Shown piece after piece: positions 1 through 64,000 of a stretch of DNA of 64,000 bases; the first letter of the stretch is position 1, and every line of letters begins with the position of its first letter. A model generated the notes under the pieces. The model saw nothing but the letters and a program-made list of their open reading frames with translations. It was not told the origin of the DNA and made no database searches. The translations under genes and the position numbers were made by a program. Source of the DNA: Escherichia phage vB_EcoM_WFH; sequence record NC_048194.1; one strand, given 5' to 3'.

Positions 1-726
1 CAACCAAGCCTGCGCATTATCCCCTGATCCTGTGCCACCCATGGAAGTGGGAACGATATTTTGATCAGCGACTTGTCCGAATCCAAAAGCAGATTTCATG
101 CCCTGAATGGTAGTCTGGCCTGTACCACCATTTGTGACTGGGATTACATCTTTGTCGGTGTATATTCGCACCCAATTAGACCAAGCCGATGATGCAGCGG
201 TGTATCTTCTTTGGTGCAGCGTGTTATTGGAATAAGTTGTATATCTTTGGATGCAACTTTCTGTGGCAACGCCTGTTTGTAGCACCTCAAGAACTCCCGC
301 TTGTTCCACAGGGTAGTTAAGGGGTGCCGATGCGCCAGCATTTGCTGATTGGTGATATTGACCAAACCATGAACCAGTCAACGCATTAAGGTTGATGCCT
401 GAGGGAATCTCTCCAAAGTTTCGGACAGTACCCGTCAAAGTCGCAGCAGTTGTTCGAATGGAAAGTAAATCACCAGCCGCCCATGCACGCGCTGCAGTAC
501 CTTCCTGTGCACGCTGCACGGTCAGGACGTTTCCAACCACGGCTGTTACTGTGACTATTTCAAATTGTAGGCCTGTTGCAGCGTCGACGATTGTCGCCAC
601 TACACGCTCGTTTGCGCCCAAGGTCGGAAAGTCTGACCCTGAGCGAATTGTGATTGTGGTGTCTGAAGTTGTCGTTGGTTGAGCCAGCGCGACCTCAAAG
701 TTGTTTTTGAATATTAGCCTTGGCAT
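1..726 (-). CDS. tail fibre-like protein, N-terminal portion (partial; 3' end lies beyond window start)
   Basis: Hand translation of minus strand from ATG at 726-724 is open to position 1 (242 codons): MPRLIFKNNFEVALAQPTTT...; contains GGTG motifs (VTNGGTGQTT, SMGGTGSGD) and N-terminal pattern recalled from phage tail fibres. Not in ORF track because it is truncated. Confidence 0.5.
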   Translation of the reverse strand, partial: MPRLIFKNNFEVALAQPTTTSDTTITIRSGSDFPTLGANERVVATIVDAATGLQFEIVTVTAVVGNVLTVQRAQEGTAARAWAAGDLLSIRTTAATLTGTVRNFGEIPSGINLNALTGSWFGQYHQSANAGASAPLNYPVEQAGVLEVLQTGVATESCIQRYTTYSNNTLHQRRYTAASSAWSNWVRIYTDKDVIPVTNGGTGQTTIQGMKSAFGFGQVADQNIVPTSMGGTGSGDNAQAWL

Positions 727-764
727 TTTACGGTCCTCGTTTTGTCGACAACCGTATTATAGCC

Positions 765-1106
765 TTAATTTCTTTTGAGAGGAATATGACGGTTGCTGTC
801 ATTATTTGGTTTAATAATGAGCATAAAAACGATTAGAAAGATGATGGCTGATATACTTAATTCAATCAGCGCGGCCTGAGATATGGATTGATCTTCATGA
901 TACTGCTTTTGCATTTCTGCTTTCTTCTGAGCGCAAACTTCAGGCGATATATAATCACCTTTTGAGTTGCCATAATAAATCTCGCCATTTTCAGAAATAA
1001 GTCTGCCGCAAATATCCGTATCGGCCTTTGCACTCGACATCATAATAACGGTGCCGATGATAGCAGCAATTGTCCAGATTAGCAGTTGTGATAAAGTATT
1101 GTTCAT
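765..1106 (-). CDS. small membrane protein (two predicted TM segments)
   Basis: Internal ATG of track ORF 765..1313; product MNNTLSQLLIWTIAAIIGTVIMM... with hydrophobic N- and C-terminal stretches; upstream part of track ORF reads as non-coding and holds a stem-loop. Confidence 0.35.
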   Translation of the reverse strand: MNNTLSQLLIWTIAAIIGTVIMMSSAKADTDICGRLISENGEIYYGNSKGDYISPEVCAQKKAEMQKQYHEDQSISQAALIELSISAIIFLIVFMLIIKPNNDSNRHIPLKRN

Positions 1107-1123
1107 GATAACCTCTTTAAATT

Positions 1124-1144
1124 CCCTTCCCATATCGGGAAGGG
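1124..1144 (-). terminator. intergenic stem-loop (CCCTTCCC/GGGAAGGG), terminator or attenuator-like
   Basis: Inverted repeat cccttccc-atatcg-ggaaggg between minus-strand genes; A/T-rich flank on minus strand. Confidence 0.3.
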
Positions 1145-1302
1145 CGAATGTTATTTTAAGCGAAAGAATAGGCGAGTGCCACACAGAGAGTCCCAACGGC
1201 CTTCGCCGTCCCATATCGACCCAACACCAGCGGTGATTGGGCCAGCAGAATTGGCGGCATTGGCCCAGGCGAGACGTTTTAATTTCCAACTGCACCAACG
1301 AT

Positions 1303-1554
1303 TCACAGTTCATCTCCAGACTTCAAAATTAATCCCGCATAGATTATTGCCAAAGCTAAAGGCGCACCGCCGCCAGCCTCTCTATTCTCTTTGATTTGAA
1401 GAGTATCTTTTAGGAATTGAAGCTGAACGTTGAATTCATTTTCAATTCCAAGCACTCCAGCTAATTCTTTTACAGAATCTGCATATGCCTTGTCTATCAC
1501 TTCTTTTGGCACCGTTAAGGTTAATTCATTTGCCATTTTCTTTCCACTCCACAA
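1303..1554 (-). CDS. hypothetical protein (83 aa)
   Basis: Track ORF in co-directional minus-strand array; no recognisable motif. Confidence 0.35.
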   Translation of the reverse strand: MWSGKKMANELTLTVPKEVIDKAYADSVKELAGVLGIENEFNVQLQFLKDTLQIKENREAGGGAPLALAIIYAGLILKSGDEL

Positions 1555-1747
1555 ATGTACTGCTACTTGTTTCTCTATTTAGCAGGTATCTGCCGCGCAT
1601 TCCACGAAGGCTGAACTCAACCGTCGATGGATTAGATTTTGAAAGCCACATCACTTGACCGTCGAACGGTCCGCCAACGCATGTGTATTTGGCCTTTGGC
1701 TCACTCCTTTTGGGCCTCTTTGCCCGCTCTTTGATTGATAGTCTCAT
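1526..1747 (-). CDS. hypothetical protein (73 aa, basic)
   Basis: Track ORF, overlaps neighbours by few codons as in phage operons. Confidence 0.3.
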   Translation of the reverse strand: MRLSIKERAKRPKRSEPKAKYTCVGGPFDGQVMWLSKSNPSTVEFSLRGMRGRYLLNRETSSSTFVEWKENGK

Positions 1748-1962
1748 CAGTCTTCACCTTGAGATTCAAGACAAGTAAGAACAAGCCACGTCATCGGAAG
1801 AATCAAAACCAGAGAAATAAGTGACCAAATGGACCAACACAAGATGACAGACTTGAATGTATGAACGTCGCCAAACACAGCAGTGAAACAAAATCCCATC
1901 ACGAAAGCAAGCGCGGTGGAGTGGTTGTCAATGGCTTTGATGGCACGGTCGATGAGTTTCAT
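1747..1962 (-). CDS. small membrane protein (holin-like topology, function unproven)
   Basis: 71 aa, two hydrophobic segments (ALAFVMGFCFTAVFG and ILCWSIWSLISLVLILPMTWLVL), short charged C-terminus. Confidence 0.35.
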   Translation of the reverse strand: MKLIDRAIKAIDNHSTALAFVMGFCFTAVFGDVHTFKSVILCWSIWSLISLVLILPMTWLVLTCLESQGED

Positions 1963-2043
1963 ATTACCTCCGGTTTTGAGTTAATATGATTATAACGCAG
2001 AGTTTCAGAAAGGCAAACTTTTTGTGAATTTAAATTAAAAAAA

Positions 2044-2064
2044 TGGCCAGATTATTTCTGGCCA
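2044..2064. other. stem-loop TGGCCAG-n7-CTGGCCA flanked by A-run, in divergent intergenic region
   Basis: Perfect 7-bp inverted repeat with A7 upstream on plus strand (U-tract on minus-strand reading). Confidence 0.3.
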
Positions 2065-2109
2065 AAAGATCACCCTTTATCCACTACTAAGCTGGAATCA
2101 CAATTTTAC

Positions 2110-2139
2110 TTGATATAGCTGTCGCAAGCAAACTATAAT
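2110..2139 (+). promoter_or_regulatory. sigma70-like promoter (TTGATA-18-TATAAT)
   Basis: Near-consensus -35 and -10 hexamers with 18-bp spacer; the -10 abuts the annotated ATG at 2140, so the true terminase start may be the downstream Met at 2173. Confidence 0.45.
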
Positions 2140-3600
2140 ATGAATAAAATATTAACACATAATTGGAAAGTCATGTACCAGTTGAATCCTGCTTTAAGAG
2201 AAGTCTGGAAGACGAAAGCGCGATACAAAGTCATATACGGCGGTCGTGCATCTTCCAAATCGCACGATGCCGCTGGTTTTGCTATTTATTTGGCGGCAAA
2301 CTTCAAATTAAAATTCCTTTGCGTTCGACAATTCCAGAACAAGATTTCTGAATCAGTATATACGCTATTAAAAGATAAAATAGAGATTTCTGATTTTAAA
2401 GACGAGTTCAACTTATTAAAAAACTCTATTGAACACAAAAGAACAAAATCTGAATTTTTATTTTACGGTATCGCACGCAACGTTGACGAAATCAAATCAA
2501 CAGAAGGTGTTGATGTTCTTTGGCTTGAAGAAGCGCATGCACTGACTGAAGAGCAATGGGACATTATTGAGCCGACAATTCGTAAGGAAGGGTCCGAAAT
2601 ATGGATCATATTTAACCCTGATGAAGAGGCTGATTTCGTCTACCAGAACTTTGTTATGCGACCGCCGAAAAATGCCATCGTTAAGAAGATTAACTGGCAG
2701 GACAATCCATTCTTGTCGCAAACAATGCTGGATGTTATCGCTGGCATGTATGAGCGCGACCCGAAAAAGGCAGAACACGTTTATGGCGGAGTGCCGAAGA
2801 CAGGTGGCGATAAGTCGGTCATCAACCGTGCATTCGTCAAAGCCGCGCTAAACCTCCACAAACACCCTACGCTGGGATGGAGCTTGTCAGGGTCTAACCG
2901 TATAGGCTTCGACGTGGCGGACGACGGCGACGACTTAAACGCCACAGCGTTTGTCACAGGCAACGTATTACGTGGCATCAAGACATGGGAAGGTCTGGAA
3001 GATGAATTGCTTAAGTCCGCAAGCGGAGTCTGGAAAGACGCATTGACATTCGGCGCATCAATCACCTATGACGCCATCGGTGTTGGTGCATTTGCTGGTT
3101 CAAAATTTGATGAGCTTAATGAGTATGCAATCCATGAAAATCCAACATTCCCAAGAATCGAATTTAATGCGTTCAACGCGCAAGGTGCTGTTGATGATCC
3201 TGATGACGTCTTCCTTGAGTTACCACACGTTGAAATACTCAATAAAGACCATTTCGCAAACATAAAAGCGCAAAAATGGACTGAGATTGCCGAACGATTC
3301 AGAAAGACATATGAGTATGCGACAGGGCAAGCCGTATATCCGACCGATGAGTTGATTTCCATCGACACAGACGGCATCCCAGAACTTGGTATTCCCGCTT
3401 GGTCTGCGGAAGAAATTGAGACGTTTCTTTTTGAGATGTCAGCACCGCGCAAAGACACGTCTGTACTTGGCAAGTTCAAAGTTGAATCGAAAAAGGATAT
3501 GGCAAAGCGTGGAGTCAAATCGCCTAACAAAGCGGACGCAGCAATCATGGCATTGATGAAACCAATTGTTGCAGCATCCGGCTTCTTCTCTAACCTTTAA
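2140..3600 (+). CDS. terL: terminase large subunit
   Basis: 486 aa; N-terminal ATPase Walker A-like KVIYGGRASSKSHDAAGF, Walker B-like VDVLWLEEAH, C-terminal nuclease-like region; first large gene of the morphogenesis block. Confidence 0.85.
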   Translation: MNKILTHNWKVMYQLNPALREVWKTKARYKVIYGGRASSKSHDAAGFAIYLAANFKLKFLCVRQFQNKISESVYTLLKDKIEISDFKDEFNLLKNSIEHKRTKSEFLFYGIARNVDEIKSTEGVDVLWLEEAHALTEEQWDIIEPTIRKEGSEIWIIFNPDEEADFVYQNFVMRPPKNAIVKKINWQDNPFLSQTMLDVIAGMYERDPKKAEHVYGGVPKTGGDKSVINRAFVKAALNLHKHPTLGWSLSGSNRIGFDVADDGDDLNATAFVTGNVLRGIKTWEGLEDELLKSASGVWKDALTFGASITYDAIGVGAFAGSKFDELNEYAIHENPTFPRIEFNAFNAQGAVDDPDDVFLELPHVEILNKDHFANIKAQKWTEIAERFRKTYEYATGQAVYPTDELISIDTDGIPELGIPAWSAEEIETFLFEMSAPRKDTSVLGKFKVESKKDMAKRGVKSPNKADAAIMALMKPIVAASGFFSNL

Positions 3601-3603
3601 CAA

Positions 3604-3843
3604 TTAAAGCATTCCGTGCTGAAGGTCGAGCTTTCTTGCGGCAAACGACCTGGCACGGAATCGCTTACCCGCCCTTACTGCCTGTCGAATTTTCTTTTGC
3701 AAACACTTACGGTCAAAATCGTTGCGGTCGACGGCTTCGAGTAAATCGCGACGCAGTGCACCCAGTGTCGACTTTTCGGAGACTTCAACGCCCAGCGCGG
3801 CTGCAACATCTTTCAAAACATCGAGTTCGGTTAAAGTTCTCAT
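3604..3843 (-). CDS. hypothetical protein with Rho-N/SAP-like N-terminal helix motif
   Basis: 79 aa, MRTLTELDVLKDVAAALGVEV... resembles Rho_N-type helix-extended-helix; basic C-terminus; opposite strand to flanking terL/portal. Confidence 0.4.
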   Translation of the reverse strand: MRTLTELDVLKDVAAALGVEVSEKSTLGALRRDLLEAVDRNDFDRKCLQKKIRQAVRAGKRFRARSFAARKLDLQHGML

Positions 3844-4256
3844 TTGATAATCCCCTTGATGTCTGATTCTGCCATAAAGATTGGAGTGCCGCCGCCAGGA
3901 ACAATCGAGCGCGTGACCTTGTCAAACATATCGTTTTCTTCAACTTGAATACGATAAAATTTATTTTTGGATGAAGATGGGCACAATCCCATAAATTTGC
4001 CGATGCCGCGAACGCATTCATCTTCAAAGTATACTGTTTCACCTTGAATGGAGTCGATGTCGTCTACTGGATAGACCTTGCGACCCAATAGCCACTCATC
4101 CAAAGTCGCCTGCAAGACGTTGCGCGCATCTAAAATCCACGGGTCAATAGTAGCACCTTCATATCGCGCAGCAGTGGCCTTTGCCAGTTCTTCATATTCG
4201 CATACGTTAACGACTTCGCCGTTGTGCAAGACGACAAATACAATTGTTGTGCTCAT
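3840..4256 (-). CDS. hypothetical protein (138 aa)
   Basis: Track ORF with ATG start, overlapping stop of downstream gene (operon pair); no recognised motif. Confidence 0.4.
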   Translation of the reverse strand: MSTTIVFVVLHNGEVVNVCEYEELAKATAARYEGATIDPWILDARNVLQATLDEWLLGRKVYPVDDIDSIQGETVYFEDECVRGIGKFMGLCPSSSKNKFYRIQVEENDMFDKVTRSIVPGGGTPIFMAESDIKGIIK

Positions 4257-45759: not shown

Positions 45760-46599
45760 TTATTCCGCTTGATCACCGTCTTCGGCATCTTCGTTGGGTT
45801 CAACATCGACAAACTCGATGTGGCCCATCTCTTCCAGCTTGCTCAGGTAGGAGCGAACGGAAGCGCCAAACAGTTGATCTTTAACTTTTTCGCCCAGCTC
45901 ATCGATAGACTGCGCCACGCCAACTTCGCCTTCTTTGATCGCCGCCAGAACGCGTCCACGGGTGGAATGCTCTTGCGGCTGGCTCAGGCCATTGCCAGTG
46001 TAGATGAAGTGAGTAGCTTTTGCACGACGTTGACCGTTTGCCTTTTTAGCGGCCTTACGTTCTGCGATGGCTTTGCGACGTTCTTCAGCTTCTTTCTTAC
46101 GCTGTTCTTTCTGTTGTTCTGCAGCTTCTTTCGCCGCAATCTTAGCAGCTTCACGCTCTGCCTTGCGTTTCGCTTTAGCTTCTTCTTTGGCCTTCTCTTT
46201 TTCGGCCTTCGCTGCAGCACGGGCTTGATCACGCTCTGCTTTCTTAGCAGCAGCTTGTTCAGCTTTCAGGCGCTTGGCTTCTTCTTTAGCCTTTGCCTTT
46301 TCGATTTCTTTTGCTGCTTTAGCGGCTTCACGCTCTGCTTTCTTAGCAGCAGCCTTTTCTGCACGCTCTTTAGCTTTCTTAGCTGCTTCTTCAGCACGCT
46401 TCTGAGCCTTCTCATCAGCAGCCTGCTTGCGTTTCAGGGCAGCTTCTTCACGCTTGGCTTGTTTTTCCTGCTCACGCTTCTGGCGTTTTTCTTCGGCTTC
46501 TTTCTTTTTAGCCAGACGTTTTTCTTCAGCCACGCGACGGCGTTCTGCTGCAGCTGCTTGCTTTTCTTCTTTAGATAATACTTTGATTGCTTCGGCCAT
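45760..46599 (-). CDS. K/A/E/R-rich coiled-coil protein with C-terminal globular domain
   Basis: ATG at 46599 (track start is GTG two codons earlier); ~200 aa of low-complexity charged helix (AEEKRQKREQEKQAKREEAALKRK...), then ~80-aa domain (..GRVLAAIKEGEVGVAQSIDELGEKVKDQLFGASVRSYLSKLEEMGHIEF..). Confidence 0.6.
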   Translation of the reverse strand: MAEAIKVLSKEEKQAAAAERRRVAEEKRLAKKKEAEEKRQKREQEKQAKREEAALKRKQAADEKAQKRAEEAAKKAKERAEKAAAKKAEREAAKAAKEIEKAKAKEEAKRLKAEQAAAKKAERDQARAAAKAEKEKAKEEAKAKRKAEREAAKIAAKEAAEQQKEQRKKEAEERRKAIAERKAAKKANGQRRAKATHFIYTGNGLSQPQEHSTRGRVLAAIKEGEVGVAQSIDELGEKVKDQLFGASVRSYLSKLEEMGHIEFVDVEPNEDAEDGDQAE

Positions 46600-46758
46600 A
46601 TTCACAGTCCTTAAATAAATTAGTTTATTTTATATTCCCCTTTTGGGATAACTTAATTATGCCTTCAGTCGCCGCCAGTAGCAACTAAAAACTCTGGCGG
46701 CAATGCCACTTTAATTAAACTGATTTTCAGTTTTATTTTTCGTAAATTTACGTCAACA

Positions 46759-59859: not shown

Positions 59860-60115
59860 GTCCATGTGGTGTGAGTCTTTATTATCGGATAAAGCGATTG
59901 ATTTGTGTAAATCTATTAGAGGATTGTGGGAAGTGAGTATTGTGACGTGAATTTTGTGCCTTGGATATGTGTGCGAATTTGGAAGAATATTGTACTGTGG
60001 TGTTGTGGGATTGGAGAGGGAATCACTAGGTTTTGGGGCGTGTACCGTGGTGTGTGGGCCTGTAGGCTGCGCCGTCTCTGGGATTGCCGCTTGAAATTAA
60101 AAAGGAGATATAGTT
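59860..60115 (+). other. strand-asymmetric G+T-rich non-coding tract
   Basis: About 250 bp dominated by GTG/TGG/GGG runs on plus strand (C-rich, G-poor on minus strand); the only ORF is a Cys/Trp-rich artefact. Confidence 0.5.
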
Positions 60116-60143
60116 AGCTGGCTAACCTTACGCATAGAATTTA

Positions 60144-60440
60144 AGCGTATAATGACGTAAGATTTGGACCTATCCGTAGTTCACTCCACACACTTCTATG
60201 GTGCGCCGCGACTGGGTTCAGTGGTACATCTTACGGATGATACGGATGATACGCGTCGCCGCTATACTTTATACAACTTTGAAAAAAACAATTAACTCCA
60301 TTTTGAATTAATTTAAATTAATTTTTTTCTACATCCTCATACTTATACTAAACTTATATTTATACGTATTATCCGTAAGATATAAGTAAAAACAAAGACT
60401 TGCGGCAATACGGATGATACGTCATGATACGCTTCAACCA
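60144..60440. repeat. iteron module copy B (homologous to 8757-9040)
   Basis: gcgtataatgacgta...; tcttacggatgatacggatgatacgcgtcgccgctatactttata (45-bp core, 2 mismatches vs copy A); AT-rich spacer; ttatccgtaag and caatacggatgatacgtcatgatacgc. Confidence 0.7.
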
Positions 60441-60578
60441 GCCAGCAGCGGCTAAGTCATTGATTTGCATAACAAGCGGCGAAAGGGATGGATTTCTTTT
60501 ATGCGTATCAAACAGTACACCACGCACCACGGTCCGATATTCATTCAGCACTATGATTTATGTACTTTTACAGCCAAT

Positions 60579-60605
60579 TTGAACATCAATCTGCACTTGA
60601 ATATA
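60579..60605 (+). promoter_or_regulatory. promoter-like element (TTGAAC ... TGnAATAAT) upstream of TerS-like gene
   Basis: -35-like TTGAAC and extended -10-like TGAATAAT about 50 bp upstream of ATG 60658, followed by two tandem ATTTGCACTATG repeats. Confidence 0.35.
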
Positions 60606-60657
60606 ATGTTCAATCATTGTATAATTCACACTATTAATTTGCACTATGGGATTTGCA

Positions 60658-61133
60658 CTATGAGTCAAGATTATGTAGCAATGCCTGAAGACTTTGAAGA
60701 CCCGCGATTTGCAGAGCATAATCAGGCATTATTCGATGAGTTCATTGACCTTGTTATTCAGGGCCATGACATGCGCGCAGCTTTTGCACTAGTATTTGGC
60801 ATGGAGGTTGCGACCGATAACTACACTGGCCAGCGAATCCTGTGCACTCAGCGCAACCCGTACTACAAGATGCGCTACAAAAAGCGCATGGAAGAAATGC
60901 CATTGAAGGAATTGTGGAGCGTAAAAAGTTCCATCCACAATTTAGTGAAGCTTGTGCGTGATCCAGAAGTCGCGGCGTCAGCCAAGCTTAATGCCATTCG
61001 TGAACTGAATATCATCTACGGCATCACGATGATTGATGAAAATGGCAATAGTAAAATGGGCCGTTCCATGGACGATTTCTACAAGGATTTTGGAGAGGCA
61101 GCCAAAGAGGGTGAGCAATTCTCCCGCCACTAG
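60658..61133 (+). CDS. terminase small subunit-like DNA-binding protein (tentative)
   Basis: ATG at 60658 (track ORF 60465 starts upstream in AT-rich non-coding DNA); 158 aa; ...NQALFDEFIDLVIQGHDMRAAFALVFG...RILCTQRNPYYKMRYKK... resembles TerS N-terminal HTH pattern; start codon overlaps a repeat copy. Confidence 0.3.
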
Positions 61134-61150
61134 CCAATTTGCACTATAAA

Positions 61151-61188
61151 ACGGCCCTAGAACACATTTTCTCCACTTCTAGGGCCGT
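61151..61188 (+). terminator. stem-loop (ACGGCCCTAGAA-n14-TTCTAGGGCCGT) downstream of TerS-like gene
   Basis: 12-bp stem; no strong U-tract. Confidence 0.45.
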
Positions 61189-61561
61189 TGGTAATACGAC
61201 GGGGAAGGCTGCAACCATGAACGCGTTAGAAAGTGTATTATTATAAGTCATCTTTTAGTCACTTTACGTAACAATTTACGACCTTCCGCCGTCCAGTCGA
61301 ACGACTCCACCAGCAGATTTGCACTATAACCTAAGACGATGCGCCCCTTCTCGTTATCGACCCGCCAACAAGTCTCGAATAGCATTCGATTTGCACTATT
61401 AACTATCGCCGCAACGCGCGTTGGGTAAGCGCAATTTGCACTATGGTCGTAAAGGGATAAGGTGCGACCACTGCCGATGGACAACGTAGCGATGAGAATA
61501 AGCGTATTCATAAGCCACCAATTTGCACTATGAAAAGCGACCCCGAAGGGCCGCCATTCGA

Positions 61562-62188
61562 TTAGATAATCTGGAAGGTGTAGGACTTGTTGCCGAACTC
61601 GAAGTTCAAGCGCCCAGCTTCCTTAAGCTTCATGCGGAAGCGAATATGTTTGCTATCCGGTAAGCCCAGCGCGGCGAACGCTACGCGGACCGATTTGAAC
61701 TCGCCTACACCCTCGACCATAACGGCGTTACGGGTGAGACGCTTTTGCGCCACTTCCTTGTTATCCCAACTTTTTGCAATACCTTCGCTATTAGAACGGC
61801 GATGGGAAGGAGTTCCATTTTGCACTACGCAATTTGCACTATCGTTTAGGCCGCTCTTAACGAAGGCTTCATACTCTTCGTCGGTCATCGCGTCGAGTTC
61901 TTCCTGAGTCGGCTCGGCCTTTTTAACGACCGCACGCGCCTTATGCGTTTTTACATCGCTGGACACTTCCTCGCGCGGCTTCGCGTCGGGGATGGGCAAT
62001 TCGTTGGACGGCTCATCGAGCGCGTTTAAGGACTCGATTAACGCGATGACGCGAGTCTCAGCGGTGCGACGGTCCACAAACTTCTTAATCGGTTTTGAGC
62101 CGGAGTTGGCATTATAGAATGCAACGAGGTCGGCGGTCTTAGTTGCGATAACGTCGCCGCTAGTAGAAAAGCGATTTAAGCTAACCAT
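61562..62188 (-). CDS. hypothetical protein (208 aa)
   Basis: Track ORF in CpG-rich block; contains two ATTTGCACTAT-type motifs within its coding sequence (61817-61842); no recognised domain. Confidence 0.4.
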   Translation of the reverse strand: MVSLNRFSTSGDVIATKTADLVAFYNANSGSKPIKKFVDRRTAETRVIALIESLNALDEPSNELPIPDAKPREEVSSDVKTHKARAVVKKAEPTQEELDAMTDEEYEAFVKSGLNDSANCVVQNGTPSHRRSNSEGIAKSWDNKEVAQKRLTRNAVMVEGVGEFKSVRVAFAALGLPDSKHIRFRMKLKEAGRLNFEFGNKSYTFQII

Positions 62189-62268
62189 AATAAACTCCTA
62201 TTTGTTAGGGCGCTAGGCGCGAAAGAATTTTATTAAAGCGCCGCGCACGACGCTCTAAAAATCCTCTC

Positions 62269-62583
62269 TTACTCTTCGTCGTCTTCGATTAATTCGAAGG
62301 CGAAGGCATAAGCTTTGCTATCGTAATTAACTAAAACGGCGAGTTCGAACTCGTTAATAAACGCCGTTTTACCGCATAAATTTAATTCCGCATCGACTTC
62401 GAAGAATCCGTTTTCGTCGCGCTCTAAGCGAGAAGCAGCGAGTTGCTCGATTACCGTCGCGTCGTTAATTTCTTCGCCTAAGCGAACGCCGGAGAATTTC
62501 GCGAGAATTTCGCCGTAAGTAAGCGTAACACCCTGGACTTCGGCGGTTGCGTTTTCGAGGGTGAAGCGGGTAACGATAGCCAT
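62269..62583 (-). CDS. small acidic protein, paralogue C (104 aa)
   Basis: RBS aggag; very acidic (ends ...FELIEDDEE); similar size and charge to 62808..63110 and 63217..63507; driven by minus-strand copy of shared promoter module. Confidence 0.45.
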   Translation of the reverse strand: MAIVTRFTLENATAEVQGVTLTYGEILAKFSGVRLGEEINDATVIEQLAASRLERDENGFFEVDAELNLCGKTAFINEFELAVLVNYDSKAYAFAFELIEDDEE

Positions 62584-62651
62584 TTTAAACTCCTAGTTGG
62601 GAGAGGCGTTAACGACCTATTCGTTAACTCATCCCGTCCCGATATGAGTAC

Positions 62652-62679
62652 ATTATAATATAGTGTAGAAAAAAGTAAA
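62652..62679 (-). promoter_or_regulatory. sigma70-like promoter, minus-strand copy of shared module (TTTACT-16-TATAAT)
   Basis: Reverse complement of 62634-62686 reads AAAGTGCTTTACT...TTATAAT...ATATCGGGACGGG, matching the two plus-strand copies. Confidence 0.45.
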
Positions 62680-62723
62680 GCACTTTTTCGATAAAAATGC
62701 GATAAATTATTTTATCTTTTTTC

Positions 62724-62751
62724 TTTACTTCTTCGTACACTCGCGTATACT
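62724..62751 (+). promoter_or_regulatory. sigma70-like promoter, plus-strand copy 1 (TTTACT-16-TATACT)
   Basis: CTTTACTTCTTCGTACACT core shared with 63121-63149; followed by ATATCGAGACGGG. Confidence 0.45.
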
Positions 62752-62807
62752 TGTTTATATCGAGACGGGCGATGGCCCTTTCTTCTACTAGCATCGGGAG
62801 CTTTATT

Positions 62808-63110
62808 ATGACTACTTTAATCTCTTCCATCCTTACTTACGACGAAGACCGCTTAACCGTTCGCTCTCTTATCGCCGCCGTTAACGCGGAACTAGAATCT
62901 AGCGCCATCAAGGTCCGTGCCGTTGCCTTCGTCGGCCTTTCCTTCGACGATATTAAGTATGCAGAGTATAGCGCCATTCGCGTTGTTACTACCGACGATA
63001 ACGCCGTTACCCTTATCGAGACGGTTACGCCGCGCGGCGAAGCGTTAATTATCGTCGAGTATATCGACGTAGAAGGCGATAAAGCTTATAAATATTTTAT
63101 CGCAGAATAA
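62808..63110 (+). CDS. small acidic protein, paralogue A (100 aa)
   Basis: ATG at 62808 with RBS gggag (track start 62751 upstream); MTTLISSILTYDEDRLTVRSL... Confidence 0.45.
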   Translation: MTTLISSILTYDEDRLTVRSLIAAVNAELESSAIKVRAVAFVGLSFDDIKYAEYSAIRVVTTDDNAVTLIETVTPRGEALIIVEYIDVEGDKAYKYFIAE

Positions 63111-63120
63111 CGAAAAGTGC

Positions 63121-63149
63121 TTTACTTCTTCGTACACTAAGACTATAAT
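63121..63149 (+). promoter_or_regulatory. sigma70-like promoter, plus-strand copy 2 (TTTACT-17-TATAAT)
   Basis: AAAGTGCTTTACTTCTTCGTACACT...TATAAT...ATATCGAGAGGGG. Confidence 0.5.
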
Positions 63150-63216
63150 GTTTTATATCGAGAGGGGATGAGGTAGCGAATAGGTCGCTACCCTCCCGAC
63201 TAACTAGGAGAATATT

Positions 63217-63507
63217 ATGATTACTTTAGCCGCTATCCGTTCCGCTCGCGTCGAAACTTCCGAAAACTCTAACGTATTTGGCGAAAAACTTAAAAACGTT
63301 TATCTCTTTAACGTAGATGCGACTATCGAAGAGCTTCATAGTCCTATCGATTTTAGCGAATTTACGGAACTCGAAGAGGAAGATATTACTACCTTCCGCG
63401 TTACTATCGAAGGTAAGGTTTATTTTGCTACGGAGTTCGGCGGCGAATATCTCGCGGTATCCGAAGGCGAAGGCCGTTACTCTTTCTTTAAAATCGTCTC
63501 CTTATAA
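63217..63507 (+). CDS. small acidic protein, paralogue B (96 aa)
   Basis: ATG with RBS aggag; MITLAAIRSARVETSENSNVFGEKLKNVYLFNVDATIEELHSPIDFSEFTELEEEDITTF... Confidence 0.45.
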   Translation: MITLAAIRSARVETSENSNVFGEKLKNVYLFNVDATIEELHSPIDFSEFTELEEEDITTFRVTIEGKVYFATEFGGEYLAVSEGEGRYSFFKIVSL

Positions 63508-63527
63508 TACCCTTCCGTTACTAATAG

Positions 63528-63553
63528 GCCGCGCTTAGTCGCGGCTTTTCTTC
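63528..63553 (+). terminator. intrinsic terminator (GCCGCG-CTTAGT-CGCGGC + TTTTCTTCG)
   Basis: GC stem plus U-tract directly after paralogue B. Confidence 0.6.
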
Positions 63554-63960
63554 GTCCCTATCTCGATGCGCTTCTCCGCGAAAACTCCTTTATCCTTCCC
63601 TTCGTCGTCGCATAATCTTCGTCGAGATGCGCCTTAGTTCGCATAACAGGTATTACGTTAAATGGAGAACATCGCGTAAGTCCTTGTTTTATATAGACAC
63701 CTATATCGGACCGTTAGGGAGGGTCGCGCAAGTCGTTGTTTTATAAAGGCGCAAAACTTTCCCTTCGTTCCGAACTAAAACGAGAAATATGCCGACCCTT
63801 CGCCCGAAAATAGTACGCATGCGAAATTACATGTATCTAGAATAATCCCCACCGATATTATCCTACACGCAATCATTAGCTTTCGAATCATTATGCTTCA
63901 TACTATTATGCGTCGAATCATTCGCTTTCTAATTGTAACGCTGGAAACTGTAACGGCGAT
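63554..63960. repeat. ORF-free tract rich in short direct repeats at window end
   Basis: No ORF of 60 aa or more; recurring short motifs (AATCATT x3, TTCGAATCATT x2, TTGTTTTATA x2, GATGCGC x2, CGCATAA x2, TGTAACG x2); window ends inside it. Confidence 0.4.
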
Positions 63961-64000
63961 TGATTATTGCGTTCGTGTGGTTTTTAGGGCATGGGTCTTT

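Follow-up and report, generated by a model that had tools for sequence, protein, structure and literature searches.

The right end of the genome of Escherichia phage vB_EcoM_WFH carries a 2.8-kb block in which the dinucleotides TG and CA are strongly depleted and CG and TA are enriched. The 64,000-nucleotide stretch analysed here (record NC_048194.1) is called the window below, and the depletion is called the purge. The block makes up the right-hand 2.8 kb of the 3.7-kb direct terminal repeat (DTR) of this Wifcevirus, and it contains three promoter modules and the genes for three small acidic proteins. With a probability of about one in two, we consider it a pre-early (first-expressed) host-takeover module similar to that of phage T5, and the purge may explain why Wifceviruses resist most restriction enzymes. 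More tentatively, and as a rather unlikely proposal, the purge may be the mark left by an agent that works within the first minutes of infection and distinguishes DNA at the level of dinucleotides. Such an agent could be a pre-early phage effector that disables ordinary DNA but spares its own "stealth" module, or a host factor that reads TG/CA steps.

Location of the Block in the Terminal Repeat

In the sequence comparison, the DNA of the block was 92–99% identical to that of 27 Wifcevirus genomes. These were genomes of Escherichia coli and Shigella myoviruses, including WFC, WFH, ECML-117, Mansfield and Bas98-101. Window positions 60300 and 64000 aligned with bases 1 and 3673 of Mansfield, and Mansfield bases 1–3673 are annotated as a DTR predicted by PhageTerm. 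The window segment between these limits was therefore assigned to the right-hand DTR copy, and on this alignment position 64000 is the final base of the genome. The region is present twice in the WFC genome, once at each end, and a terminal repeat of about 3.7 kb was reported for Wifcevirus (Korf 2019, PMC6563267). About six genes are encoded in these 3.7 kb.

An unclassified sister lineage of Wifcevirus was represented by a contig of 72.5 kb, L007 (Logan SRR26188688). Its small terminase subunit (TerS) was 70% identical to that of the window, the homolog of a conserved core protein of 208 amino acids (aa) was 62% identical, and the homolog of the 104-aa acidic protein was 39–44% identical. 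L007 has the same DTR architecture and the same purge, and its early cassettes differ in set and order.

Extent and Limits of the TG/CA Purge

Composition was measured in 1-kb bins as dinucleotide counts and observed/expected (o/e) ratios, and the finer edges were read from the sequence. The change in composition near 61.2 kb that an earlier sequence-only reading of this DNA had described was confirmed. The bins 62001–63000 and 63001–64000 contained 109 and 97 CG, 24 and 25 TG, and 24 and 20 CA, respectively. All of these counts lay outside the ranges of the other 60 full bins (CG 38–84, TG 56–96, and CA 32–98). The o/e ratios in 62–64 kb were 2.07 for CG, 0.37–0.40 for TG, 0.33–0.41 for CA and 1.16–1.24 for TA, compared with roughly 1.1, 1.2, 1.2, and 0.65 elsewhere in the window. 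The G+C content of the block was the same as that of the remaining window. Bin 61001–62000 was in between (CG 1.41, TG 0.77, and CA 0.89), and bin 60001–61000, which holds the TerS gene, had a normal composition (CG 1.10, TG 1.15, and CA 1.22).

The purge was sharply bounded and conserved, and within the window it was confined to this single segment. Its left edge was read as about 61190, directly 3′ of the hairpin that follows the TerS gene. The right edge is visible only where the sequence runs past the DTR boundary, as in Mansfield and L007; in both, TG/CA-rich DNA resumed no more than about 30 bp from the DTR end.

On the sense strand, TG and CA were depleted alike whether the gene faced left or right (for example, 5 TG and 6 CA in 62808–63110), and the 450-bp non-coding arm 3′ of the terminator was also purged. 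The codons of Met, Trp, Cys, His, and Gln require TG or CA. By hand count, these residues accounted for 4 of the 297 non-initiator residues in the three acidic proteins, vs. about 14% in TerS. The purge was equally strong in an alternative 94-aa cassette and in a divergent allele of the 96-aa gene. The same was true of L007, where the 318-nt gene of the 104-aa homolog contained 40 CG, 6 TG and 4 CA (hand count). In the 208-aa core gene, the N-terminal half, which is the less conserved one, was purged and the conserved C-terminal half less so.

Homologs of the 208-aa protein were found in 354 phage records, which were mostly Pbunavirus and also included Erwinia, Serratia, Xanthomonas and Pantoea phages. 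They adjoin terminase genes in Pbunavirus, Myosmarvirus, Xanthomonas and other phages, which indicated that the gene was vertically inherited. No purge was seen in Erwinia phage TropicalSun, Myosmarvirus or a distant metagenomic relative, and the 208-aa homologs of TropicalSun and the metagenomic relative were TG/CA-rich.

The purge is therefore shared by non-coding DNA, by cassettes that replace one another, by divergent alleles, by one half of a gene of vertical descent and by a sister lineage, and it depletes Met, Trp, Cys, His, and Gln in the encoded proteins. This argues for ongoing selection on double-stranded DNA and not for a recent transfer. Since CG and TA both rose at constant G+C, TG/CA would have been lost by either transition and not by one directional mutation. 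A mutational process that acts on the whole repeat is made less likely by the normal composition of its left 0.9 kb. The sequence-only reading had left two explanations side by side. Selection against a target containing TG/CA is the one favored by the persistence of the purge over alleles, cassettes and lineages, and recent horizontal acquisition is disfavored by the same persistence, by the half-purged core gene and by the stop of the purge at the DTR boundary.

The avoidance of CTAG was relaxed tenfold inside the block, where 10 of the 31 sites of the window fell in 4% of its length. This is probably a by-product of the purge, for example through the use of CTA and TTA in place of CTG. No description of such a dinucleotide purge was found in the literature searched.

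Promoter Modules and Acidic Orphan Proteins

The pattern CTTTACT-N15-18-TAWAMT had exactly three matches in 64 kb (expected 0.03), and all of them were in the block, one on the minus and two on the plus strand. The copies aligned across the −35 and −10 elements and a common start region, ATATCG(A/G)GA(C/G)GGG. Each had an A/T-rich upstream region, the −35 element CTTTACT and the −10 element TATAAT or TATACT, and the layout was divergent. A sigma-70 scan detected all three promoters with scores of 9–10 of 12. The leftward module and rightward module 2 form a 65-nt inverted duplication (inverted repeats I1 and I2), which takes in the 5′ untranslated region (5′UTR), the ribosome-binding site TAGGAG and the start codon. 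Their 8-bp leader hairpins had energies of −17.1 kcal/mol (leftward) and −21.3 kcal/mol (rightward module 2, z −2.9). The GAAUAGG loop was constant, and the stem showed compensatory changes between the copies, so that the hairpin reads as a putative 5′ stabilizer of the message. An open reading frame (ORF) of 68 aa at 62624–62830 (minus strand) shares sequence with the divergent promoter region and with the first part of the 100-aa gene. It is annotated in Bas98 as a 56-aa gene (Bas98_0101) and is probably no real gene.

The sequence-only reading had also placed three genes of about 100 aa behind these promoters, encoding strongly acidic proteins with hydrophobic N-termini. The ORFs were present, and hand counts on the translations gave net charges of −8 to −15. 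Its view that a compact set of acidic proteins behind strong host-type promoters would stand at the first-expressed position of a phage agrees with the location of the block in the DTR. The proteins belonged to no recognized family, as it had stated: the homology searches gave no Pfam, PHROG, PADLOC or PDB-sequence match for any of the three. However, its claim that the three are paralogous was not confirmed, since BLASTP gave no significant pair and profile–profile probabilities were 0.2–2.7%. Relatedness by way of a bridging profile, built from the 96-aa family, a 97-aa protein of L007 and the 94-aa cassette, was also rejected, because the alignment with the 104-aa family was limited to 26 N-terminal residues and had a probability of 2.7%. 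The one paralogous pair detected was the 96-aa protein with the 94-aa cassette carried by other genomes (E 1e-7, 33% identity over 89 aa).

The 100-aa gene occurred in all 27 Wifcevirus records. The 104-aa gene was found in nine of them, and the 94-aa cassette occupied its slot in 12; elsewhere this leftward slot holds other cassettes. The 96-aa protein had two alleles that were about 65% identical within DNA of roughly 93% identity. In L007, the homolog of the 104-aa protein (105 aa) was placed behind a rightward promoter instead. When 5.8 billion and 1.84 billion proteins were searched by word index and exhaustively by phmmer, relatives of the 100-, 96-, and 104-aa proteins were confined to Wifcevirus-like contigs of 68–72 kb. 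The exhaustive search with the 104-aa protein gave five matches in all, one of which was the 105-aa protein of L007, and the 100-aa and 96-aa proteins were restricted to the genus. Confinement to the genus, divergent alleles, swapped cassettes and the rearrangement in L007 are signs of an arms race and suggest that these small proteins are fast-evolving and exchangeable.

AlphaFold models were unusable, with pLDDT values of 47.4 for the 100-aa family (21 sequences) and 52.8 for the 104-aa family (five sequences). These low-confidence models were mixed alpha/beta, unlike the helical Ocr/ArdA type. A Foldseek search of the PDB with the better model (the 104-aa family) gave no match at E below 1, and the family and structure-database searches detected no nuclease or DNA-binding domain in any DTR protein.

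Restriction Sites and Restriction Phenotypes

Wifceviruses in BASEL resist every tested restriction system except EcoP1_I (PMC11990801). The resistance covers restriction systems of types I, II, and III; the DNA is unmodified, and no protection gene or mechanism is known (PMC11990801). Bas98 has 36 EcoRI and 82 EcoP1_I sites. In the window there were 15 EcoRI, six EcoRV, four EcoKI, and four EcoA-type sites, all outside the DTR. The EcoP1_I site, AGACC, occurred four times in the DTR of the window, in both orientations, and was the only site of the tested systems with a known sequence that falls in the DTR. In the DTR of Bas98, three sites were checked: AGACC was present five times, in both orientations, and EcoRI and EcoRV sites were absent.

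Restriction–modification (RM) of types I and II is ineffective against T5-like phages unless the sites fall in the first-entering terminal repeat (PMC10644984; bioRxiv 10.1101/866236), and the factor behind this resistance is still unidentified (PMC10644984). In Autographiviridae, the first-injected region governs how sensitive the phages are to type I systems (PMC12455610). The published phenotypes fit an early anti-restriction function of the block.

Over the whole window, CTAG (31 vs. 132 expected) and CCGCGG (0 vs. 11.4) were avoided. GAATTC (EcoRI; 15 vs. 25.5) and GATATC (EcoRV; 6 vs. 13.3) were present at about half their expected numbers. The BREX site of E. coli HS, GGTAAG, was over-represented (26 vs. 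15.8 expected), with three copies in the block within the DTR. EcoR124I and EcoR124II, which are outside the BASEL panel, had one site each in the same block, at 62770–62782 and 61337–61350 (both minus strand).

Two further candidates were rejected. CAGAG (StyLTI-like) was considered as the site of EcoCFT_II and ruled out, as Bas98 has 96 such sites vs. 93 in the BASEL table. DNA hypermodification with TG/CA as its context was also set aside. The nearby genes named "thymidylate synthase / kinase" encode ThyX and a PNKP-type phosphatase, and a modification specific for TG/CA would miss EcoRI and EcoRV sites. No enzyme of DNA hypermodification or methylation was found among the candidate genes of the phage (ThyX, the PNKP-type phosphatase and a short-chain dehydrogenase).

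Proposed Function of the Block

The following sequence of events is proposed for the T5-like module. Since the module lies in the DTR, whichever genome end goes in first would bring one copy of it. Host RNA polymerase would read the three sigma-70 promoters and produce a few small, very acidic proteins together with the conserved 208-aa protein. The acidic proteins would neutralize host nucleases or defenses, and the rest of the genome would then be protected. The DTR segment itself would be exposed before any protection exists, and for this reason, we propose, it has been selected to be invisible. Selection would swap TG/CA for CG or TA in double-stranded DNA at the cost of Met, Trp, Cys, His, and Gln.

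The closest known parallel is T5 and its relatives (Tequintavirus T5 and BF23). They likewise have a long direct terminal repeat, host-type promoters that drive small proteins, and unmodified DNA that resists type I and II RM in vivo, with a vulnerability that follows the sites in the repeat (PMC10644984; bioRxiv 10.1101/866236). Correspondingly, only AGACC, the site of the sole effective system, falls in the Wifcevirus DTR. However, the T5 repeat is larger (about 10 kb and about 17 genes, compared with 3.7 kb and about six), and PHROG and Pfam searches revealed no homologs of A1, A2, dmp or other T5 genes among the Wifcevirus DTR proteins. Wifcevirus is a myovirus related to Pbunavirus, and a two-step injection such as that of T5 would be hypothetical for it. 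To our knowledge, no dinucleotide-level purge is known for T5.

The T7 early region (promoters A1–A3 and gene 0.3, Ocr) is similar in having several strong host promoters at the leading end and leading DNA that is free of the relevant sites. Its first product, Ocr, is a small and very acidic anti-restriction protein. The Wifcevirus proteins have no sequence similarity to Ocr, and their low-confidence models are alpha/beta; the module is arranged divergently and has a copy at each end of the genome, and Ocr does not account for resistance to type II enzymes. With DNA mimics in general (Ocr, ArdA, Arn, and gp5.9), the Wifcevirus proteins share small size, a predicted early expression and a net charge of −8 to −15 per roughly 100 aa, but they match no such family in Pfam, PHROG, PADLOC or PDB. 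Acidity is also common among early phage proteins with other targets. Restriction-site avoidance in phages is likewise a selective loss of short DNA words. It usually concerns words of 4–8 bp and leaves amino-acid usage untouched, whereas Wifcevirus loses a whole dinucleotide step in one 2.8-kb segment and its protein composition is reshaped.

Several points weigh against the proposed role. The left 0.9 kb of the DTR, with the TerS gene, is unpurged though it enters together with the block. We know of no nuclease or binding protein with TG/CA-level specificity, and dropping one dinucleotide would remove only about half of the possible recognition sites. For these two reasons, evasion does not explain the choice of the TG/CA step. 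In searches of Pfam, PHROG and PDB sequences, neither T5 A1 or A2 nor any other known pre-early or anti-restriction protein was found as a homolog. The numbers of EcoRI, EcoRV, EcoKI, and EcoA sites expected in 3.7 kb were about 1, 0.3, 0.25, and 0.25, so that their absences are singly non-significant; the pattern of sites in the repeat fits the five systems with known sites, at low expected counts. Finally, Tequintaviruses resist EcoPI despite sites in the repeat (PMC10644984), and Wifceviruses do not.

The candidate region for restriction resistance is only 3.7 kb long with about six genes, and the phages grow on derivatives of E. coli K-12, which makes it directly testable. Its setting, with a terminal repeat, early promoters and variable acidic orphans, would be a new variant of a known leading-region strategy. 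The removal of a dinucleotide that reshapes proteins, is limited to one segment and is kept across lineages is a constraint that we did not find described in the literature searched. If a dinucleotide-specific agent is indeed responsible, self and non-self would be discriminated in a new way, by DNA composition and not by base modification. The cause of the purge could reveal a new host or phage activity, and the purge itself could yield a design rule for "stealth" leading regions of engineered therapeutic phages.

Alternative Explanations of the Purge

Here, four other explanations were considered. In one of them, which we regard as unlikely, the phage is immune to its own weapon: a pre-early phage factor (a nuclease for host DNA, or a blocker of transcription or replication) acts through TG/CA contacts, and the early module is free of its target. 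The remaining genome would enter or be used later, or would be otherwise protected. A symmetric purge at the dinucleotide level, bounded by the early module, suits an effector of low specificity better than it suits restriction sites of 4–8 bp. Phage development is very fast and done within about 10 min (PMC7048862), and an aggressive host shut-off is therefore expected. T5 offers a parallel, as it reportedly breaks down the DNA of its host in the course of first-step transfer but spares its own repeat DNA (bioRxiv 10.64898/2026.04.02.716235). However, no nuclease or DNA-binding domain was detectable in the DTR proteins, the remaining phage genome, being rich in TG/CA, would have to be protected separately, and an effector of such low specificity has no known example. 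Another explanation is the acquisition of the block from an unsampled phage lineage with a genome-wide signature, with the left junction within the 208-aa gene. Neither E. coli nor the remaining phage has such a signature, which includes the tenfold relaxed CTAG avoidance; related genera lack relatives of the 100-, 96-, and 104-aa proteins, and Myosmarvirus and the distant metagenomic relatives are unpurged. Against this, the orphans were found only on Wifcevirus-like contigs among all the proteins searched, the signature is undecayed between lineages at 39–62% protein identity, and the right edge falls on the DTR end. In addition, we know of no organism that combines a CG o/e close to 2 with TA above 1 and TG/CA around 0.4. 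A recent genomic island would share the atypical composition, but the block includes a core gene and its signature has not decayed in the sister lineage. There were no mobility genes in the block, and no tRNA has been reported in Wifcevirus genomes. Such an acquisition is thus distinctly unlikely.

The other two explanations place the cause in replication or in RNA. The DTR is duplicated and recombined in each cycle of DTR phages, and the block sits within it, so a region-specific bias of mutation or repair could arise, for example from the synthesis or recombination that regenerates the terminal repeats. We consider this very unlikely: the left 0.9 kb of the DTR is normal in composition, no single directional change suffices to raise both CG and TA at the same G+C, and amino-acid usage was reshaped beyond synonymous drift. 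Selection on early messages at the level of RNA or translation has a slender chance at most. It would act through the loss of NTG starts and TGA on both strands, of ACA/UG targets of toxin RNases, or of codons for tRNAs cleaved by defense systems. The loss of TG deletes ATG, GTG, and TTG in every frame, Met, His, Gln, Cys, and Trp are almost missing, and messages without ACA resist MazF. However, the sense strands of plus- and minus-oriented genes are depleted of TG and CA to the same degree, the 450-bp non-coding arm 3′ of the terminator is purged too, and one double-stranded target is simpler than two separate RNA targets.

Other Features of the Terminal Repeat

The features of the DTR are listed in Table 1. 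The TerS product matched phrog_4783 and, weakly, a TerS PHROG, and the annotation of WFC also places a terminator at the position of the hairpin behind this gene. L007 has an 86-aa ORF at the place of the 87-aa ORF of the window. No known RNA was found in the DTR by Rfam.

Table 1. Coordinates of features in the right-hand terminal repeat of the window.
Feature	Position	Strand	Basis or remarks
DTR, right-hand copy, about 3.7 kb	60300..64000	.	Alignment to Mansfield; repeat in WFC
Ten TTTGCACTA(T) motifs, one orientation	60638..61841	+	Expected 0.66; none elsewhere in 64 kb
Small terminase subunit gene (TerS), 157 aa	60660..61133	+	Mansfield ortholog annotated TerS (HHpred)
Hairpin, perfect 13 bp, likely terminator 3′ of TerS	61150..61189	+	Inverted repeat I15, 100% complementary
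TG/CA-purged block, rich in CpG and TpA	61190..64000	.	Dinucleotide table
87-aa ORF with three TTTGCACTA motifs	61248..61511	-	Annotated in WFC, Mansfield and Bas98
208-aa core protein, phrog_4730, last long gene of the leftward early transcript (predicted)	61562..62188	-	PHROG match, E 3.8e-87
104-aa acidic orphan, net charge −15, variable cassette slot	62269..62583	-	N-terminus MAIVTRFTL
Leftward module: CTTTACT, 16 nt, TATAAT, 5′UTR with 8-bp hairpin and TAGGAG	62584..62680	-	Motif and sigma-70 scan
Rightward module 1: CTTTACT, 16 nt, TATACT, shorter and different 5′UTR	62723..62807	+	Motif and sigma-70 scan
100-aa acidic orphan, net charge −8	62808..63110	+	In 27/27 Wifcevirus records; N-terminus MTTLISSIL
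Rightward module 2: CTTTACT, 17 nt, TATAAT, 5′UTR hairpin	63120..63216	+	Motif, sigma-70 scan, inverted repeats I1 and I2
96-aa acidic orphan, net charge −10	63217..63507	+	Two allele types; N-terminus MITLAAIRS
Intrinsic terminator ending the rightward unit	63526..63547	+	Scan; annotated in WFC and Mansfield; sequence kept in L007
Non-coding right arm of the DTR	63548..64000	.	TG/CA-poor; ends in conserved CTGTAACGGCGATTGATTATTGCGTT.GTGTGGTTTTT

The TTTGCACTA(T) copies lie around and 3′ of the TerS gene (repeat families D1, D2, D4, and D7) and were also seen in L007. The array likely represents terminase recognition (pac) sites or iterons. Within two minus-strand ORFs, the copies encode Ser-Ala-Asn or Val-Gln, and the L007 homolog of the 208-aa gene is without the pair found in the window gene. 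Directly beyond the DTR, at 3697–3880 of Mansfield, there were two copies of AAATTTGCAGTACACT, which is similar to TTTGCACTA, and a tandem repeat of five CCCACGA units.

The final ~55 bp of the DTR, CTGTAACGGCGATTGATTATTGCGTT(C/A)GTGTGGTTTTT..., were kept between otherwise diverged lineages (window 63944–64000, L007 7131–7175, and Mansfield 3620–3673). This conserved end is a candidate terminase cleavage or end-recognition signal. A direct repeat of 25 nt, TCGCG(T/C)AAGTC(C/G)TTGTTTTATA(T/A)AG (family D3), occurred in the non-coding right arm at 63672–63696 and 63724–63748. The injection stop signal of T5 sits in a comparable non-coding repeat region, although the presence of a repeat-bearing arm is in itself no evidence for such a signal in Wifcevirus.

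Outside the DTR, the bin at 46–47 kb was also odd in composition, with a GC dinucleotide o/e of 2.02 and a strong AT skew. This is because a 281-aa low-complexity protein rich in Lys, Ala and Glu, probably a long charged helix, is encoded there at 45760–46605 (minus strand).

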